11,394 nucleotides of DNA from the IMG/VR virus record IMGVR_UViG_2531839129_000022. The stretch is one strand, 5' to 3'. Each line of letters begins with the position of its first letter. Positions within the stretch are counted from its first letter, which is position 1. Below are positions 2,448-11,394 of the stretch, one piece after another. Under the pieces are notes generated by a model. It was not told the DNA's origin, searched no databases, and saw nothing but the letters and a program-made list of their open reading frames with translations. The position numbers and the translations under genes are program-made. Source of the stretch: a virus. Lineage: Duplodnaviria > Heunggongvirae > Uroviricota > Caudoviricetes.

Positions 2448-2837
2448 TTACAGAAGTGAGGGCTGGTACTGGCGGTATTTCAGCCGTCGCATCCGGCGAA
2501 TGGCCTTGTAAACCGTATTGAAAGTGACACCATAACGGGTGGTCAGTTCGCTGACGTTGCGACCGTTAAAATCATTCCAGATACGCAAATCCCGAATCAG
2601 CGAGTCCAGAACCTGACCGCGTGGAATGTAGACCTGGCCGCCGCCCAGATGCTTACAGATAGCCACAACAATCTCCAGTGAATGGGCAGGATCAACACCC
2701 AGCCGGGACAATTCCCCGCGCAGTAAATCGTTCAGCTCCGCCAGCAGTGCCGGAAAGCGTGACGTATCCTCTGCGGGATTGTCAAGATGTGCCAGGATGG
2801 TGTCATCCTGCAAATCACCAAATAAATCTTCCGTCAT
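2448..2837 (-). CDS. mor: Middle operon regulator Mor (Mor/C family transcription activator)
   Basis: 129 aa MTEDLFGDLQDDTILAHLDNPAEDTSRFPALLAELNDLL...; the C-terminal HTH block is paralogous to C. The start overlaps the gemA stop (ATGA). Confidence 0.9.
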   Translation of the reverse strand: MTEDLFGDLQDDTILAHLDNPAEDTSRFPALLAELNDLLRGELSRLGVDPAHSLEIVVAICKHLGGGQVYIPRGQVLDSLIRDLRIWNDFNGRNVSELTTRYGVTFNTVYKAIRRMRRLKYRQYQPSLL

Positions 2838-3385
2838 TGTGCCATCCTCCGCGTCTTTCTGGCATGGGCATAAGCCGCCGTCATGGCATCATAGCCGCGC
2901 AGTTCACGCCCGGACGGACTGACCGGCAATGGAAGCCCGTGACGGGAAAAGGCTTCACGAATACAGCGGATGTGCCACTGTTTCAGGGTTTCAAGCACAA
3001 CCTGCAACGATTCTCCGTGGCACCACGCCAGTGTGGAAACACCCTGTCCGCCGTTGCGTTTCGCTGTCAGGCGCTGAACATATTTATCCAGCGCCACATC
3101 ACCGCCATCGGTAATAAAACCGTCTTCTGCCATCTGCTGCCAGACTTTGTATACCTTCTCGCGGGGAGTGGCATACCCCTTAAAGCGGCGACGTGGATGT
3201 TTATTCAGCTTCTTAAAGCCGCGTTCTTTCATGGCATCGAGCACCTGTTCCAGTTGCGTGACCGTCAGCTCGCGGCAACTGGTTTTGCCCGTTTTCTGCA
3301 TCAGAAAAGCGCGGTAAGTGTCGTCGTCGAGTTGTAGCTCCCGACGGGCGACATGGATTAATTTAATCAGGGATGTGCGATTCAT
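2834..3385 (-). CDS. gemA: GemA (host gene-expression modulation protein)
   Basis: Translation from MNRTSLIKLIHVARRELQLDDDTYRAFLMQKTGK... matches Mu GemA as I recall it. Start chosen at 3385 because of a strong SD (GAGAGGTGAG-caa-ATG). The ORF-track N-terminal extension to 3553 has no RBS. Confidence 0.85.
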   Translation of the reverse strand: MNRTSLIKLIHVARRELQLDDDTYRAFLMQKTGKTSCRELTVTQLEQVLDAMKERGFKKLNKHPRRRFKGYATPREKVYKVWQQMAEDGFITDGGDVALDKYVQRLTAKRNGGQGVSTLAWCHGESLQVVLETLKQWHIRCIREAFSRHGLPLPVSPSGRELRGYDAMTAAYAHARKTRRMAQ

Positions 3386-3415: not shown

Positions 3416-3832
3416 ATGAAAATTGATTATGACGAGATAGCCAGAATATTTGATGTTTTTCTGGAGGCCGACACCGCATTCATTCGACTGGAAGATGTCG
3501 GCTGGGATTGTTCTCAGCGGCACAGCGACAGCCATCAGAAGCTGGTTTTCCATCTTCTGTTGCTGGTTGAAAATGGTTTTATCAGCAACAGATATCTGGA
3601 AACAGGCACCGCAAAAAGCATTGGTCTCACCCCAACAAGCCTCGGATATTCATATTCAGGCACCAGTGTCAGACTTACACAAGATGGTCATGATTTTGCG
3701 AAAGCACTACATCAAAAACCCATTCTTGAGCGCATAAAACAGGACCTTGCCGACGCCCCGATGACGCTCGTAACAGACGTCGGCAAACAGTGGTTAACCT
3801 CGTTTCTTAAAAAGAAACTCGGGATTGAATAG
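3416..3832 (+). CDS. Hypothetical protein, 138 aa, encoded on the strand opposite to the whole early operon (candidate accessory gene)
   Basis: It is the only substantial ORF in the 408-bp gap between gemA and the upstream early ORF; manual translation of all three - frames there gives nothing longer than about 25 codons. AAGGAA SD 7 nt before the ATG. Candidate extended -10 (TGgATTAAT, 3354..3362) inside the gemA 5' region. The stretch looks more AT-rich than its flanks by eye. No recognisable domain. Confidence 0.45.
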   Translation: MKIDYDEIARIFDVFLEADTAFIRLEDVGWDCSQRHSDSHQKLVFHLLLLVENGFISNRYLETGTAKSIGLTPTSLGYSYSGTSVRLTQDGHDFAKALHQKPILERIKQDLADAPMTLVTDVGKQWLTSFLKKKLGIE

Positions 3833-4120
3833 TTCCCTGTTCATACGTTGCAGCGCATCAAGGGCGGCGACAGCCGCCACTTTATTGTTACCATCAGCAA
3901 TAGTGCGGAGATTTTCAATAATCCAGTGAGGACTCAGTGACTCAGCAATAATGCCAAACCGGTACGCCATGACTTCATCAATAGCTTTTTCATGAGACGA
4001 CTCATATACAAAACTCACAAAGTCATGCACTTCTTTTTTCGGCAAACCACCAGCAATCAGCAGGGCGGCAAGCTCTTCTGATTTTGAAAATACACCATTA
4101 TTCATATCACTCACCTTCAC
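3794..4120 (-). CDS. Early-region hypothetical protein (108 aa)
   Basis: Same strand as the early operon; its start overlaps the stop of the upstream ORF by 14 nt (coupled). No recognisable motif. Confidence 0.5.
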   Translation of the reverse strand: MKVSDMNNGVFSKSEELAALLIAGGLPKKEVHDFVSFVYESSHEKAIDEVMAYRFGIIAESLSPHWIIENLRTIADGNNKVAAVAALDALQRMNRELFNPEFLFKKRG

Positions 4121-4865
4121 AATTCATGCACGCCGTGTCATCGCCCATATCGCAGTGGTTGCATTTCTGCCCGCCACAATGAGGGCACTCTTTCAGATAT
4201 TCAGGGGATTCATTCCCGCAGGTCGGGCATTCCTGTTTCACCGTGGTAAATGTCCCCGGCCACGAATACGATGTTTCACCGACTGTCTTTTTCCCCGTTA
4301 TTTCTGAATCAGAACTAATACAGTGTTTTTCAACCCATGCCACACGTGCTGAATTAAGGTGGCATCTGGCTAATTTGCTTTCGTTTATGTAATGTTCGCT
4401 CTCCCGGTTAAATGGCAATATCGCATTCAGCCCTGCTGAGATAAAGTCCGCATGTAATTGTTCTAATGCGGCTTCACTGTCTGCACCGGTTGATTCAAAA
4501 TAATCGTAAGCATTGGCACATAATCCGGCAGCCCGGATAAATACATCATCGCCCGTCTCCATTGCCCCATTCTTTAACCATTGGTTGTAGGCTGTATAAA
4601 AACTATAAAGTTGCTTTCTGATACAGGTAGTGGCAGTTCCGCCATTAACTGACGCTGGCGTAACATAGCCAGCTCTGCATAAAGCAGAACGAAGTATATC
4701 CAGAACCTGCCAGGCATCTTCTCCTTCAATCACGCTACAGTTTTTGTACACCAGGACGTCCCGGCCACAACTTTTATCAATACCCCAGTCTTCAAATTTC
4801 ACAACCAGCCTCCTGCACCACACCCGGTGCTGATGAAAAATCAATGATGAGATAACGCAGTACAT
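4107..4865 (-). CDS. Early-region protein with C-terminal double zinc-ribbon (four CxxC: CPTC, CPHC, CNHC, CMNC); function unknown
   Basis: 252-aa ORF from ATG 4865. An alternative GTG start at 4802 is preceded by AGGAGG with a 6-nt spacer and would overlap the upstream stop by only 11 nt. The Cys-rich tail is unmistakable in the translation. Confidence 0.55.
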   Translation of the reverse strand: MYCVISSLIFHQHRVWCRRLVVKFEDWGIDKSCGRDVLVYKNCSVIEGEDAWQVLDILRSALCRAGYVTPASVNGGTATTCIRKQLYSFYTAYNQWLKNGAMETGDDVFIRAAGLCANAYDYFESTGADSEAALEQLHADFISAGLNAILPFNRESEHYINESKLARCHLNSARVAWVEKHCISSDSEITGKKTVGETSYSWPGTFTTVKQECPTCGNESPEYLKECPHCGGQKCNHCDMGDDTACMNCEGE

Positions 4866-5331
4866 GGTCGGTGATATTCCAGGCGCCTGAACTGCAAATA
4901 AACCGCCCCAGCCAGATATCGATATAAGCCATCACAAAACGGGGCATTCCCTGTTTGCACATCTCGTCATCCACTTCTGCAACGATGTGAACGGACTCAC
5001 AGGTCAGCACGCCCGTCGCAAACTCTTTTGCCAGCGCGGGGATGGTATTACCTTCCACCCAGGGTAATGAGCGACGCCAGTTGCACCACACCGCATCATC
5101 AACAGCAGGCTGCTCAGTTGCGTTTCGTCTTACGGGCTGCTCTGTACGCGGGCGCGGTACGTCATAAAATCCGTTGCATTCGGTGAGCACTCCGGCATCA
5201 ACCGCATCACGCAGGAAATACACCATTGACGAGGGCAGCATATTCATTTTTTCAGCCAGAACGCCGCAGGTCAGACGCCCGTAAGCCCGTAATAATATGC
5301 TGACACCATTCAGAATTTTTGCATCAACCAT
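4792..5331 (-). CDS. Early-region hypothetical protein (179 aa) with a possible N-terminal winged-helix segment
   Basis: GAGGAA SD 6 nt upstream of the ATG at 5331. Follows gam after a 98-bp AT-rich spacer. N-terminal ILLRAYGRLTCGVLAEKMNMLPSSMVYFLRDAVDAGVL resembles a wHTH, but this is weak by-eye evidence. Confidence 0.5.
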   Translation of the reverse strand: MVDAKILNGVSILLRAYGRLTCGVLAEKMNMLPSSMVYFLRDAVDAGVLTECNGFYDVPRPRTEQPVRRNATEQPAVDDAVWCNWRRSLPWVEGNTIPALAKEFATGVLTCESVHIVAEVDDEMCKQGMPRFVMAYIDIWLGRFICSSGAWNITDHVLRYLIIDFSSAPGVVQEAGCEI

Positions 5332-5429
5332 GTTTTATTCCTCAGTAATCTGTTTCAGGCGCGAGCAATCCCCTGACGTATCGCGCCATAATTAAAAGAA
5401 TGTGAATTAATTAAATATTAATGGTGGTA

Positions 5430-5954
5430 TTAAATACCGGCTTCCTGTTCAAACGGAATAATGGAAAAATCTTCAATGCCTGATTTAACTGTAATTCCGG
5501 CAACACCTGCGACCGCTTTCGGTTCCAGCAAAATCGCTTCCTTGTTGATTTCCTGCTTCGTGCGAATAAAGCGTTGCAGGCCAAGACGCTCCAGCGTTTC
5601 CATCACTGCATCCATACCACGAATACTTACTGATGGTGGACGGACCCGCCACGATACATCACCGGTGACAAGATTCGCCGTCTTCACTTTGCCGCCGTTC
5701 GTCAGTTCGTCGCGGTTCGCTTCACACCATCCCTGAACGCCTTTTGAAAGGGTTTCAATATCGGTTTTAATCGGTGTAATCCGGGCCGCAAATTTCTCCG
5801 TAATTTCCGCGATGGCATCATTCATTTCCGTTTCCAGACGTGATGCTTCGCGCTGTAAATCCCCGATGCGTTTAATATCGGTAATCACCGCATCGCGGTT
5901 TTGTGGCATATAAGCCGCTGCGGCACTCTTGATGCGTTTTGCTGGTTTAGCCAT
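5430..5954 (-). CDS. gam: Gam, host-nuclease (RecBCD) inhibitor, Ku-like DNA-end-binding protein
   Basis: 174 aa MAKPAKRIKSAAAAYMPQNRDAVITDIKRIGDLQREASRLETEMNDAIAEI... matches Mu Gam as I recall it, in the expected position between B and gemA. Confidence 0.9.
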   Translation of the reverse strand: MAKPAKRIKSAAAAYMPQNRDAVITDIKRIGDLQREASRLETEMNDAIAEITEKFAARITPIKTDIETLSKGVQGWCEANRDELTNGGKVKTANLVTGDVSWRVRPPSVSIRGMDAVMETLERLGLQRFIRTKQEINKEAILLEPKAVAGVAGITVKSGIEDFSIIPFEQEAGI

Positions 5955-6982: not shown

Positions 6983-7186
6983 TTATTGATTAACGGGTGT
7001 TGCCTTTGTGCTTTTTACGTTCTTAAAGACATTTTCGCTGATGATGGGCGACATGCAGACCAGCCTGTGACCATCAATAAATTCAAAAGCAACACCACCC
7101 TCAACAGTCGTTTCCATTACACTGACATTATCAAGGTTGATTAACTTACTGATTCCCAGATTATCGTGAATGTTTATCACCATCAT
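6983..7186 (-). CDS. Early-region hypothetical protein (67 aa)
   Basis: Same-strand small ORF in the early operon. Confidence 0.4.
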   Translation of the reverse strand: MMVINIHDNLGISKLINLDNVSVMETTVEGGVAFEFIDGHRLVCMSPIISENVFKNVKSTKATPVNQ

Positions 7187-7193
7187 TAAAATG

Positions 7194-7421
7194 CTACCTC
7201 CAGATTATCTGACAACCATTAAGACGGGCCGTCCATACAGAACGGGCCACCCCGGACTTATGCTCCATAATCCTGACCGCGTTTTTTACCAGTTCCACCG
7301 GTGGGTAAGTGATTTCAAGAATCGGACGCGCCACGCCGAGATATGATTCATTTACATGACTCCCGCGCGCCTGTAACCAGTTCTGCGCATCCGTTGCCAT
7401 TTTTATATTTCGGGCCATCAT
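7194..7421 (-). CDS. Small early protein immediately downstream of B (75 aa); position and size fit the Mu Kil host-killing/cell-division inhibitor, but I cannot confirm the identity from sequence
   Basis: The ORF starts 15 nt after the B stop on the same strand. The kil assignment is from recalled Mu genetics (kil maps just after B, product about 8 kDa), not from sequence recognition. Confidence 0.5.
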
Positions 7422-7436
7422 AATTTCTTCTCCTTC

Positions 7437-8375
7437 TTAATTACGCAGCAGCGTTGAAATATCAACGTCCAGGTCTAATTCACGGAAAGCCTGACGCAGA
7501 TAATCTTCGTTAACACGCTCACCTTTACCGTGAGCCGTCATGGCGGCAAGGCGAAGTGAATGATTCAGAATGCGAAGCGCACCTGGTTTCTGCGCAATCT
7601 GCTGTAATAACTCCAGTTCATTTTCGCCGTTAATCTGCCAGGCATCCGCAATAGCTTTTACATCGGCTTTTTTTGTTTTATTAATTGCAGTACGCTTTGC
7701 AATACGGGAAAACAGACGGGCAAATTCAACCGTTCTGTTACCCCCCGTCATATTTGAATAAACCCGGTGATTTCCCATCAGTACAAGGCCAATACGGGTT
7801 GATTCCTGTAACAGGCGGAGTTCTTCCAGAACTTCGGCACCAAGATGATCAGCTTCGTCGATGATAACCAGCCCCTGTGTACCTTCAAGGCGACGTCGCA
7901 GGGCACGGGAGAGTGGCCCTTTACGGCGTGGTGCGTCATTCATTCCCAGCTCAAACGCCAGTTCAGTAAGACATTCCAAAACGCTAGCACAGGATGGCGT
8001 AATGGTGATCATCCAGACATTGTTATTGGTGCGGCGATATTCACGGGCCGCTTCGGTTTTGCCCACACCAGGATTGCCACATACAACAGCAATACTTTCA
8101 GTCAGGCTGGCAAAACGCATACTTGTCCAGATTTGTTTTACCGTCTGCGTTTCCACAAAGCGGGGCGGTTCAGGTAGTTCTGCAACTGCATGATATTTTT
8201 CCAGCCAGCGTTGCAGCATTTGTGAAACACGCTCGTTATCCCCGTTGTACTTATCATTGATAAAACTACTGATAGTTCCGGTAGAAAGTCCGCTCTCAAG
8301 AGCAATTTGTTTAAAGGTGGTTTCTTCATTTTCTACAAGCGTGCGCAGTCCTGCGCGAATATCGGAAATATTCAT
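7437..8375 (-). CDS. B: MuB transposition target-DNA activator (AAA+ ATPase)
   Basis: 312 aa. Walker A GNPGVGKT and Walker B LVIIDEADHL are present, with an N-terminal HTH-like region. Matches Mu B as recalled. Confidence 0.93.
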   Translation of the reverse strand: MNISDIRAGLRTLVENEETTFKQIALESGLSTGTISSFINDKYNGDNERVSQMLQRWLEKYHAVAELPEPPRFVETQTVKQIWTSMRFASLTESIAVVCGNPGVGKTEAAREYRRTNNNVWMITITPSCASVLECLTELAFELGMNDAPRRKGPLSRALRRRLEGTQGLVIIDEADHLGAEVLEELRLLQESTRIGLVLMGNHRVYSNMTGGNRTVEFARLFSRIAKRTAINKTKKADVKAIADAWQINGENELELLQQIAQKPGALRILNHSLRLAAMTAHGKGERVNEDYLRQAFRELDLDVDISTLLRN

Positions 8376-8413: not shown

Positions 8414-10405
8414 TTAAATGACTTTTTTACGTCTGTTCTGTTCCAGAATATCCAGTGAATGATTCAGATATTCATCACGATCAGTTTCATATTCATCATC
8501 GGCTTCCTGGTATTTCACCTGCACCGTGTTACCGGAAGGCCGGAAAATACCAACAACCCTTGATTCTGGTGCTGCTGGTTCGGCTATCTGCGGCAGCAGT
8601 TCAGCAACTTCCAGCGCGTCCATTTGTTTCTGCGCCTTAATGGCTGCTTTAGTTGCAGATTTCAGTTGTTTCTGGCGGCGGCGATATTCACGGCCTGCCG
8701 CTGCATCATTAAACGCAACAGGTGCCAGACATTCCGCTTCACAGATAAACCGACCGTCCAGGGTGTAACAATAAACCGTGCTGTGTAGCTGCTGCGGATC
8801 AAACCTGACCACAACTTTTTTCACGCCGGCATTCATTAATGCCATGTTGTAATAAACGTTTTTCGCGCCTTTAAGGGAGCCGCCAACTTTAAGCGTAAAC
8901 TCGCCTTTGCGTGAAACGTTCACCGCCTCGGCAGGCAGTAACAGCATCCGTTTTTGTTCTTCGGTTGGCTTACGCACAATCGTTCTGGCGTATTCACGCT
9001 CGAAAACATCATCAAACGAGAGTTTGCCCCCGCACATTTCTGTTTCACGGCCTGTTCTGGCATTGAACATCGCCACACCTTCGGCAAGGGTTTTCAGAAA
9101 CAGCTCTGCATCAACAGCGCGGTCGCCATAGTTATCAGGTTTTGCCTGAGGATTTGGCCCCGTATATGCGCCAGCCAGTGCCGGATGCTTATCAACGTAT
9201 TCCTCAAGCCCACCAACACCGAAAGCACGTTCAACAGGTTTTGCCTGGCCCCAGCCTTTACCAGCAACAACGCTTGTCCAGTGCATTTTCGCACCCATCA
9301 GTAAAAACAGTCCCTTTGGATCGTCTTCTTTCACCTTAAAGCGGTAGCGATTGGGCGCGCCTCCCGTCAGCCATTTATTCGCTGCACCACGGGTGTTATC
9401 AATGGTGATGTGAAAATCCTCCGGGATACCGTAGCGAGTCACAACATCCATGAACGAGAGGCGAATTGAATCAATGTTCTCGCTCACATCGCAGCGCCAG
9501 CCCAGAATTTTTCGGGTTTTCACATCCTGCCAGAACCATGTTTTCGGGCGGATCACATCACCGTTAAACCAGCGTACAAAGACGTTATGCAGATAACCGT
9601 CGCCGTTGATCCACTGCATGGCATCCAGGTGTTCCACAGTTCGCTGTTGTGCCGGTATCAGATGCATCAGTGCATGTTCACCTTCACGGCAGGCAACAAC
9701 CATTGCCTCGTCCAGTTGCTGAATCCGGCGAAAGGCCGTGGCACGGGAGGGAATACTCCAGCCATGCTCGCGGGCTGCCAGTTCCAGACGCTCATAACAT
9801 TTGCGGAAGGCGGGTTTTTCCGGTCGCAGATAATCTGCGATCAGAAACTGCCAGGCATCCTCGTCAAATTCACTTTTGTGAACGTTGCGACGGGATGCAC
9901 CACGTCCATCAACAAGCGCAGCCGCCCAGTCAGGCTTCGCAAACTTCTGTACCTGGTAATACTTGTCCCGCAAAGTGGATGCGCTGACCTGGTAATGCCC
10001 TGCAACGGTCGCAAAAGCCGTTTTTGTTGAAATCCCCTGGTTCAGCATTTCGTCTGCAGCCTGAACCGCAGGCAACCATTTTTCAGCAAGTCTGCGCTGG
10101 GAATCGCTGGCGTTATCCCATTTGCTCCACAGTGCCTCACGATCATAATCATGGGCTTCCAGCGTGGGGCGGGCGATTTCAAAATACCCCAGGCTTGTTT
10201 CAATCTCTCCTTGTCTCAGCAATAACGCCGCTTTCGCTTCAACAGGTAAAGAGTTCGCATTGTATTCAATTGCTTTACCACCTTTGACACCTGCTCTAGT
10301 GCGGTTTTGCCATCCTTGCTTTTTAGCAACATAAATCACACCAGCCGATGTTTTCGGCAAACCAGGAAGATTCGCACACTCTTTCGGTGATACCCAAAGT
10401 TCCAT
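8414..10405 (-). CDS. A: MuA DDE transposase
   Basis: 663 aa from [32 protein letters not shown]... The ORF track starts three codons earlier at a GTG, but the ATG at 10405 has AGGTGA 5 nt upstream. The N-terminal domain is visibly homologous to the c repressor N-terminus in this window. Confidence 0.95.
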
Positions 10406-10406
10406 G

Positions 10407-10634
10407 TTATTCACCTGCTTGATATCGGCTAGGCCAGATTACTTCCGGTTTAGTTTCTAAGGCGTTAGCAATAATCTGCTCACCCTTTGGCCAGTGTCGT
10501 TCTAGCGCATTAGCTAATGTAGTTGGCGCATAACCAAACTGCCGGGAAAGAGCTGATAAAGAGAGCTTTCTTTTCTTAAGTCCCGCAATCACATCCGCAC
10601 GATGCCAATCACGGGCCTTTTCGTTGGAACACAT
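10407..10634 (-). CDS. ner: Ner, negative regulator of early transcription (small DNA-binding protein)
   Basis: 75 aa [48 protein letters not shown]... with an AGGAGG SD 8 nt upstream. The stop is 1 nt before the A start codon. Confidence 0.9.
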
Positions 10635-10803: not shown

Positions 10804-11394
10804 TTGAAAAGTAACTTTATAGAAAAGGGTGATACTGAAAAGTCAATTTGGTGTTCGCCGCAAGAAATTATGGCTGCTGATGGTATGCCTGGATCTGTTG
10901 CTGGTGTTCACTATCGAGCAAATGTTCAAGGCTGGACGAAGCGGAAAAAGGAAGGTGTCAAGGGGGGGAAAGCTGTTGAATACGATGTGATGTCGATGCC
11001 CACCAAAGAACGAGAGCAAGTTATTGCGCACTTGGGGTTATCCACACCGGATACTGGTGCTCAAGCCAATGAGAAACAGGATTCTTCGGAACTGATAAAC
11101 AAATTAACCACAACCTTAATCAATATGATTGAAGAGCTGGAACCAGATGAAGCACGCAAGGCACTGAAACTTTTAAGTAAAGGGGGGTTGTTGGCGTTAA
11201 TGCCTCTTGTATTTAATGAACAGAAACTTTACAGCTTTATAGGATTTTCACAGCAAAGTATTCAGACGTTGATGATGCTAGATGCATTACCTGAAGAAAA
11301 ACGCAAAGAGATTTTGTCAAAGTATGGGATTCATGAACAGGAAAGTGTTGTAGTACCTTCACAGGAACCACAGGAGGTAAAAAAAGCCGTATAA
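10804..11394 (+). CDS. c: Mu-type lysogenic repressor c (Repc), TTG start
   Basis: 196 aa (M)KSNFIEKGDTEKSIWCSPQEIMAADGMPGSVAGVHYRANVQGW... The N-terminal DNA-binding domain is homologous to the MuA N-terminus. The initiation codon is TTG, with AAGGGG about 9 nt upstream. The stop is the last codon of the window. Confidence 0.9.
   Translation: MKSNFIEKGDTEKSIWCSPQEIMAADGMPGSVAGVHYRANVQGWTKRKKEGVKGGKAVEYDVMSMPTKEREQVIAHLGLSTPDTGAQANEKQDSSELINKLTTTLINMIEELEPDEARKALKLLSKGGLLALMPLVFNEQKLYSFIGFSQQSIQTLMMLDALPEEKRKEILSKYGIHEQESVVVPSQEPQEVKKAV

Follow-up and report, generated by a model that had tools for sequence, protein, structure and literature searches.

We analyzed a stretch of 11,394 nucleotides (nt) of a tailed-phage sequence (IMG/VR virus record IMGVR_UViG_2531839129_000022, Caudoviricetes), referred to here as the window, which is the early (left) end of a Mu-like prophage. 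Directly after gam, on the minus strand, the window carries two overlapping genes. The first encodes an orthologue of Mu gp11. The second encodes a mosaic protein in which Mu gp12 has been replaced by an unrelated cassette that is fused in frame to Mu gp13, giving a chain of an N-terminal mini-module, a helical domain of about 100 amino acids (aa), a linker, and a zinc module. We regard this anatomy of the locus as highly likely to be correct. The features of the two genes are as follows, with position 1 being the first letter of the window.

4792..5331, minus strand: Mu gp11 orthologue, 179 aa, 91% identity over 174 aa
5158..5331, minus strand: N-terminal winged-helix domain of gp11, residues 1-58
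5068..5157, minus strand: linker of gp11, residues 59-88 (PRPR...RR...), variable, basic (isoelectric point [pI] 10.2) and probably disordered
4834..5064, minus strand: C-terminal alpha/beta domain of gp11 (Gp11_C, Pfam PF25754), residues 90-166
4809..4814, minus strand: Shine-Dalgarno sequence AGGAGG of the second gene, with a 6-nt spacer to GTG 4802
4107..4802, minus strand: second gene, a three-module mosaic of 231 aa, start codon GTG 4802-4800, stop codon 4109-4107
4107-4865, minus strand: 252-aa open reading frame (ORF) called mechanically from ATG 4865, ending in CPTC...CPHC...CNHC...CMNC
4803..4865, minus strand: 5' extension of the 252-aa ORF, an alternative frame of the conserved gp11 coding sequence
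4279..4808, minus strand: non-Mu cassette, 530 nt, from just past the Shine-Dalgarno sequence to the position of the gp12 stop codon
4632..4802, minus strand: N-terminal mini-module, residues 1-57 of the 231-aa protein
4305..4631, minus strand: ~100-aa helical domain, residues 58-166 (phrog_2510, E 3.4e-29)
4110..4277, minus strand: Mu gp13 part, residues 176-231, 93-96% identity to gp13 of Mu, SfMu and vB_YpM_5
4110-4235, minus strand: core of the eight-cysteine zinc module, residues 190-231
4229-4218, 4187-4176, 4163-4152 and 4130-4119, minus strand: CxxC motifs at residues 192, 206, 214 and 225

The original prediction had described a 179-aa ORF and a 252-aa ORF after gam as two uncharacterised early proteins, and both ORFs were present in the window as described. 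Both represent real genes rather than chance ORFs. In the first protein, the Gp11_C profile scored 128 bits against a cut-off of 27 (E 1.8e-37), with profile positions 1-77 of 78 aligned at residues 90-166, while residues 1-176 aligned collinearly to positions 1-175 of 176 of phrog_1949 (E 4e-104). In the second protein, phrog_6418 matched the entire 231-aa sequence (1-231 of 231, E 2.1e-165). The word "uncharacterised" is correct insofar as the proteins belong to catalogued families without known function. However, they are not orphans: the first is Mu gp11, and the second ends in Mu gp13.

The best reading of the second gene is a start at GTG 4802 and a length of 231 aa. This start, proposed earlier because of the perfect AGGAGG upstream, agrees with the extent of phrog_6418, with the coding sequence annotated by PGAP in E. 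coli JCKP02 (WP_244588664.1, of the same 231-aa extent), and with the gene calls on two Logan contigs. The stop codon of gp11 lies at 4794-4792, so the two genes overlap by 11 nt, as had been predicted, and the same overlap is found in JCKP02. A further homologue (P0001) is also 231 aa long and is 95% identical to the second protein of the window. The Mu DNA homology ends immediately past a shared CAGGAGG, the ribosome-binding site that serves gp12 in Mu, indicating that the swapped cassette brings its own start codon. We also considered ATG 4865 as the start. The 63-nt extension that it would add was identical and open in all four copies compared, and stop codons do not exclude it. Nevertheless, this start is disfavoured by the Shine-Dalgarno sequence, the position of the junction and three independent gene calls. 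Because the extension is an alternative frame of the gp11 coding sequence, translation of the second gene probably does not include it. The 252-aa protein is thus to be replaced by a 231-aa fusion that arose from a cassette swap at the gp12 position.

The mosaic was first indicated by the comparison with phage genomes. Megablast showed that Mu, D108, SfMu and Yersinia Mu-like phages match the window at 89-96% identity, with no matching phage covering more than 61% of the region 3700-5500. The breakpoints of the cassette were then set by blastn against Mu, Yersinia vB_YpM_5 and SfMu. The cassette stands in for Mu coordinates 2682-3218 (locus L001), which are the 537-nt coding sequence of gp12. 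In the junction alignments, identity with Mu stops just past the ribosome-binding site on the upstream side and resumes with the first base after the gp12 stop codon TAA on the downstream side. The gp13 gene of Mu starts within the end of gp12, with an overlap of 14 nt that includes the gp13 ATG, and this stretch was removed by the swap. With no stop codon in the cassette and without the gp13 ATG, translation continues in frame (...GKKTVGE|TSYSW...) into the eight-cysteine module of gp13. A remote relation between the cassette and gp12 was rejected: residues 1-175 of the 231-aa protein gave no blastp match to Mu gp12 at E <= 10, the hhalign probability was 0.1%, and no DNA homology was found over 4279-4808.

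The gp13 part of the fusion is highly conserved. Residues 176-231 match positions 5-60 of 60 of phrog_5584 (E 3e-39), and the cysteine spacing, CxxC-11-CxxC-3-CxxC-8-CxxC, is identical in Mu gp13. All eight cysteines were invariant in every relative examined, and the tail of four CxxC motifs noted earlier is therefore real and conserved, with no orthologue lacking it. In alignment A5, the residues G, N, E, P, E, K, G, K, D, G, D, D, N and E were invariant in addition to the cysteines. The core ECPTCGNExPEYLKECPHCGxxKCNHCDMGDDTACMNCE is nearly invariant across the collected Mu-like loci, in proteins of 46, 47, 60, 63, 88, 231 and 271 aa in which the preceding sequence varies. Stand-alone gp13 proteins are 46-63 aa long and have their own start codon, and the module of the window is a fused derivative of them. 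Judging from the cysteine pattern, the module probably binds zinc, with two zinc ions as the probable number.

Two relatives of the zinc module were found in other settings. Klebsiella phage Kpn BU9 (L009 2528-2680) encodes a gp13-like protein of 50 aa with 48% identity, the same eight-cysteine spacing and an acidic EYEEDE tail, immediately upstream of genes for an exonuclease, a Gp2.5-like single-stranded DNA-binding (SSB)/annealing protein and a DNA polymerase. In another Mu-like prophage (L006 6001-6816, GCA_917191115.1), an independent long fusion, the 271-aa protein P0010, occupies the gp13 position; it has a different N terminus and likewise ends in the zinc module. In place of the gam of the window, that prophage carries DUF3164 and DUF5420 genes.

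The cassette itself contributes two modules. The mini-module proper occupies residues 4-42 (about 40 aa) and has the core W-x-I-D-x-S-C-G-R-x-x-L-x-x-x-x-C-S-V-I-E. Using tblastn, we found that modular proteins of Xanthomonas CP1-like phages, Pseudomonas phCDa gp58 and the C terminus of Ab31 ORF32 contain relatives of it, with identities of 45-64% across some 35 aa. The last of these proteins (L090 1238-2650, 470 aa) has DnaJ-like CxxCxGxG repeats at its start and the mini-module of the window type at its end, and its segment VVTKNESGAIVSVTRQDKEGRVLSVIAE recurs in the E. coli prophage protein P0268. The sharing of the mini-module and of VVTKNESGAIVSVTRQDKEGRVLSVIAE among Ab31 ORF32, the window and P0268 shows that mini-domains are shuffled across phages of different genera.

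The ~100-aa domain was modelled as five helices at residues 57-166, mostly with a predicted local distance difference test score (pLDDT) of 68-82 and with a dip at residues 130-135. An exhaustive profile search with alignment A1, which is headed by the window protein, retrieved 847 representative clusters at E <= 1e-3, 263 of them at E <= 1e-10. The members are mostly stand-alone proteins of 95-120 aa, usually about 100-115 aa and encoded among small early genes. By tblastn, 259 phage records matched the domain; virulent coliphages with large genomes (~150 kb), tuntematon and iGC_PHA_EC001 among them, showed as many as four matching places each. In Sf12 and Pondi, its gene has small hypothetical early genes as neighbours. 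Elsewhere, the domain is fused to DUF551, to a dATP/dGTP pyrophosphohydrolase or, in the distant relative P0238, to a Lar-type zinc ribbon (29.3 bits against 28.6). An 83-member alignment showed invariant F, W, G-L-C, P-F and N residues, and all of them are kept in the window protein. The 83 members gave no consistent match to any Pfam model, the domain had no relative in the PDB and no PADLOC match, and a Foldseek search of BFVD returned only uncharacterised members of the same family.

The first protein is collinear with Mu gp11 over its full length. A large protein database yielded 221 relatives; all are unnamed proteins of E. coli or Salmonella Mu-like prophages. The window carries a variant of gp11 with the C-terminal tail ...DFSSAPGVVQEAGCEI. 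An AlphaFold2 model of gp11 based on 27 homologues had a mean pLDDT of 64.9. Residues 1-57 were modelled as helix-helix-helix-strand-strand (pLDDT ~77), residues 90-165 as an alpha/beta domain with four strands, a main helix and a short one (mostly pLDDT 70-86), and residues 61-87 had a pLDDT below 50. The linker is also the least conserved stretch of the gp11 alignment (A3). The predicted structure of the N-terminal domain has the winged-helix fold, in keeping with the wHTH-like segment that had been noticed in the sequence. The best structural matches of this fold include proteins that do not bind DNA, namely APC2, ESCRT-II Vps36 and ribosomal eS25. The domain is acidic (pI 4.9, 5 K+R against 6 D+E), and the stretch predicted to be its recognition helix (SSMVYFLRDAVDA) contains two Asp and a single Arg. 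No helix-turn-helix (HTH) family was matched by sequence in Pfam or NCBIfam. The basic recognition helix or wing and the HTH-family match that mark winged-helix DNA-binding regulators of the MarR/ArsR/PadR type were thus lacking in gp11. Because the domain is acidic, the recognition helix has this composition, no HTH family is matched and only the linker is basic, we would not call gp11 a DNA binder on the basis of the modelled fold.

Database searches with both proteins gave little else. Gp11_C was the only match above threshold in Pfam, NCBIfam and PADLOC; those to DnaJ and HypA are motif matches below it. Sequence and profile searches of the PDB, made with both proteins and with the gp11, 83-member mid-domain and zinc-module alignments, returned nothing significant. 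No homology to a structural or replication protein was found for either protein. In addition, neither protein had sequence, profile or fold similarity to solved anti-defence proteins or to the PADLOC defence models.

We then compared the gp11-gemA interval of the window with those of other Mu-like loci. A scan of IMG/VR with the gp11 alignment yielded 80 loci, whose ORFs between gp11 and gemA were classified against a small reference set. The interval occurs in more than 20 arrangements among the 80 loci: gp12 is found with or without gp13, gp13 is also found without gp12, and the presence of a 108-aa gene, of the 103-aa gene and of gp14 varies as well. Four of the 80 loci have the fusion, one of them (L010) being identical to the window, while four others have the stand-alone 129-aa form of the ~100-aa domain in the same slot. 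Among 5426 complete E. coli genomes, 35 contain the gp13 segment and two contain the full fusion gene (92.6-92.7% identity). The fusion gene is also found on two Logan contigs, and it was recovered as a 696-nt reading frame in all three sources. The frame was intact in all four translated copies (the window, L004, L007 and L008) as well as in the four IMG/VR ORFs. Between copies, dN/dS (the ratio of nonsynonymous to synonymous substitution rates) was 0.30-0.55 overall and 0.05-0.5 in the zinc part, which, with the intact frame, speaks for maintenance of the fusion.

Further arrangements were observed in and next to this interval. In L043, a small ORF at 4440-4718 (+) lies between gp11 and the gene for the 129-aa form. 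From an internal ATG it reads MIKSIGFVLLVGTCGN..., and by its sequence the product looks like a lipoprotein signal with a lipobox. In SfMu, about 515 nt without an annotated gene (L003 2410-2923) lie between gp13 and the gp11 homologue, where Mu has gp12. An additional DUF5420 gene lies between the gam and gp11 genes of SfMu.

What the two proteins do is a separate question. The original prediction had placed them in the non-essential early region of Mu-like phages, and the region is indeed the semi-essential early region of Mu, which is non-essential and whose genes are "largely unknown" (PMC3820752; PMC4553209). In the literature we found no paper on the function of Mu gp11, gp12 or gp13, only general remarks on unknown semi-essential genes. 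Our tentative reading, to which we give somewhat less than even weight, is that both proteins are soluble cytoplasmic accessory factors that act by protein binding early in lytic growth, with the gp13 module as the docking part and the upstream modules as cargo. An accessory role through protein binding would be expected because the folded modules are all acidic (pI 4.35 for the zinc module, 5.2 for the ~100-aa domain and 4.45 for Gp11_C, in addition to the winged helix) and none matches an enzyme or DNA-binding family. The reading also draws on the maintenance of the fusion, on the constancy of the zinc module behind variable N termini, on the turnover in the gp11-gemA slot and on the shuffling of the ~100-aa domain among phages. 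Under this reading, the partners bound by both would be proteins and not nucleic acids. The invariant zinc module (40 residues) would be a constant binding or docking element that tolerates N-terminal extensions of about 6 to 230 residues, and the modules ahead of it would be interchangeable cargo by which a target, perhaps a host factor or a defence protein, is added or changed. Three genes of the operon would be translationally coupled, given the 11-nt overlap between gp11 and the second gene and the 1-nt gap to the gene that follows.

Several observations weigh against the protein-binding reading. The protein-binding or host-interaction step is one that we infer from composition, context and turnover only, and the winged helix of gp11, helped by its basic linker, could bind nucleic acid. 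The structural models are moderate, that of the 231-aa protein having a mean pLDDT of 59.6 with 50-60 in the zinc tail, and this makes fold arguments for the second protein weak. An in-frame GTG at 4241-4239 could initiate a free zinc module, with no good Shine-Dalgarno sequence seen for it. The dN/dS values come from few substitutions, and the identity of the N-terminal module everywhere means that the fusion is young and could be merely tolerated. The fusion is also rare in E. coli genomes.

Alternatively, both proteins may be auxiliaries of DNA transactions such as transposition, replication or the handling of DNA ends, and may account for classical early functions such as arm. The genes lie directly after gam, which encodes a DNA-end binder, in a region reported to hold gam, sot, arm and cim (PMC4553209), and the winged helix and basic linker of gp11 are what such a role might use. 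The gp13-like protein of Kpn BU9 lies beside replication and recombination genes, but this neighbourhood argument comes from one phage only. The first two knuckles of the zinc module resemble the zinc ribbons of RadA, eL40 and bL32 in the PDB (E 0.03-0.9), the N-terminal ribbon of RadA being matched at E 0.03. However, these matches are below significance, and the RadA match covers only a generic CxxC-x-CxxC knuckle pair. The acidity of the zinc module and of the winged helix would be unusual for nucleic-acid binders, and the free gain and loss of gp12 and gp13 among similar prophages fits a core replication role poorly. We therefore regard a role in DNA transactions as unlikely.

A more specific version of the host-interaction idea is that the gp11-gemA interval is a counter-defence or host-takeover island, in which the ~100-aa domain would represent a new inhibitor family directed against a defence or housekeeping protein of the host, and the gp13 module would be a common docking element to which such inhibitors can be joined. 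The general notion of anti-defence or host takeover, raised in the original prediction, is compatible with the hypervariable slot, the acidic modules and a widespread domain of small early genes. The island with its inhibitor family is improbable in our estimate.

It might also be argued that the fusion is a recent neutral accident of illegitimate recombination, in which the N-terminal modules would be inactive or simply carried along and at most the gp13 part would matter. The first 171 nt of the fusion gene (the N-terminal module) are nucleotide-identical in all copies, which points to a recent origin, and the rarity of the fusion in E. coli genomes and IMG/VR loci favours such an accident, as does a mid-domain dN/dS of about 1 between the two closest copies, although these have only 10 differences. 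On the other hand, the frame stays open across copies 7% apart in nucleotide sequence, and the JCKP02 copy has exchanged part of its mid domain with the stand-alone 129-aa lineage. Moreover, all of the family-wide invariant residues of the ~100-aa domain are kept, and P0010 shows that a long fusion to the same zinc module arose independently. Together, these observations leave a neutral accident quite unlikely.

A last possibility, that gp11 binds DNA through its winged helix and regulates transcription or immunity (e.g. as cim), with the downstream mosaic as unrelated cargo, draws on gp11 being the most constant gene of the interval (62-99% identity among the homologues of the 80 loci, which gp11 itself retrieved as the query), but is quite unlikely given the net negative domain with the recognition helix described above, the structural matches to proteins that do not bind DNA and the missing HTH-family match.

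The protein-binding reading thus remains the one that we tentatively prefer. Apart from function, the analysis provides a corrected start codon and gene model, assigns gp11 and gp13, and documents how a cassette exchanged along gene boundaries produced a fusion. It also recognises the gp13 module as a conserved, fusion-tolerant element and flags a large phage domain family, found from Drexlerviridae to large (~120-150 kb) virulent coliphages, that has no Pfam entry. If the protein-binding reading is right, the locus offers a natural experiment, with the same backbone carrying gp12 and free gp13, gp13 alone, the ~100-aa domain alone, or the fusion of the domain to gp13. Comparison of these variants on defence-carrying hosts could then provide a first function for early genes of Mu that have lacked one ever since its genome sequence was determined.

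The other genes of this early end of the prophage are as follows.

10804-11394, plus strand: repressor c
10407-10634: ner
8414-10414: transposase A
7437-8375: B
5430-5954, minus strand: gam, directly upstream of gp11 (Pfam Phage_Mu_Gam, E 9.8e-42)
3794..4105, minus strand: next gene of the operon, 103 aa (phrog_1988), a homologue of SfMu gp14 and vB_YpM_5 gp21 with 83-84% identity
2834-3385: gemA (Pfam GemA), downstream of the 103-aa gene
2448-2837: mor
1232-1654: C
622-1140: lysozyme

The 103-aa gene has no counterpart in Mu. From the N termini of its homologues and the sequence, its start is inferred to be ATG 4105, and not GTG 4120 of the mechanically called ORF; ATG 4105 lies 1 nt past the stop codon of the 231-aa gene.

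Two other segments of the window depart from Mu. At 6992-7194, a second cassette swap at gene boundaries has replaced the gp6 slot of Mu by unrelated DNA, with Mu homology resuming on both sides. This cassette has a 67-aa ORF at 6983-7186 (-) without a Pfam match. Opposite to the early operon, the segment 3386-3855 has no homology to Mu, SfMu or the Yersinia phages and contains a 138-aa ORF at 3416-3832 (+) that matches phrog_585 from end to end (E 5.5e-31). A GC-rich hairpin, GGCGGC-GACA-GCCGCC, follows at 3863-3878 (+), 31 nt past the ORF. At the equivalent place, Mu has the antisense gp15. The 138-aa ORF could be a moron expressed in the lysogen.

Compared with known systems, the locus represents no new kind of system: it combines catalogued families in a variant form of the Mu early region. 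The gp11 of the window shares with Mu gp11 its position directly after gam and its domain order, but is 3 aa longer and differs in the last ~10 residues, its 3' end overlapping the new cassette. The cassette occupies the same slot as Mu gp12 (Mup12, formerly E13; PF26885 Phage_Mu_Gp12; phrog_2314), uses the same ribosome-binding site and has a similar length, but has no sequence or profile similarity to it. The zinc module has the same place in the operon as the 60-aa Mu gp13 (Mup13, formerly E14), which is a separate gene in Mu, whereas the copy in the window lacks its own start codon and makes up the C-terminal end of the 231-aa protein. With the central CxxCxGxG zinc finger of DnaJ (PF00684), the module has in common four CxxC knuckles, several of them with Gly next to them. 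However, the spacing differs, and the score of 17.3 bits is below the cut-off of 32.7, Mu gp13 itself reaching 18.2 bits; the likeness is one of motif type only. The Lar restriction-alleviation ribbon (PF14354) gave no match to the window protein at E <= 1.

The closest relatives of the ~100-aa domain compared were the stand-alone 129-aa prophage proteins P0002-P0005, which are 59-69% identical across the domain and have all of the family-wide invariant residues in common with it. Unlike in these proteins, the domain in the window is sandwiched between the N-terminal mini-module and the gp13 zinc module. The style of mini-domains on short linkers is that of the shuffled multi-module early proteins, such as those containing DUF551, and presumably also that of the lambda Ea22-type mosaic proteins. 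The shuffled proteins carry other modules, and the examples examined, Ab31 and phCDa, are Pseudomonas phages that are not Mu-like, whereas in the window such a mosaic stands at the gp12 position of a Mu-like prophage and ends in gp13.

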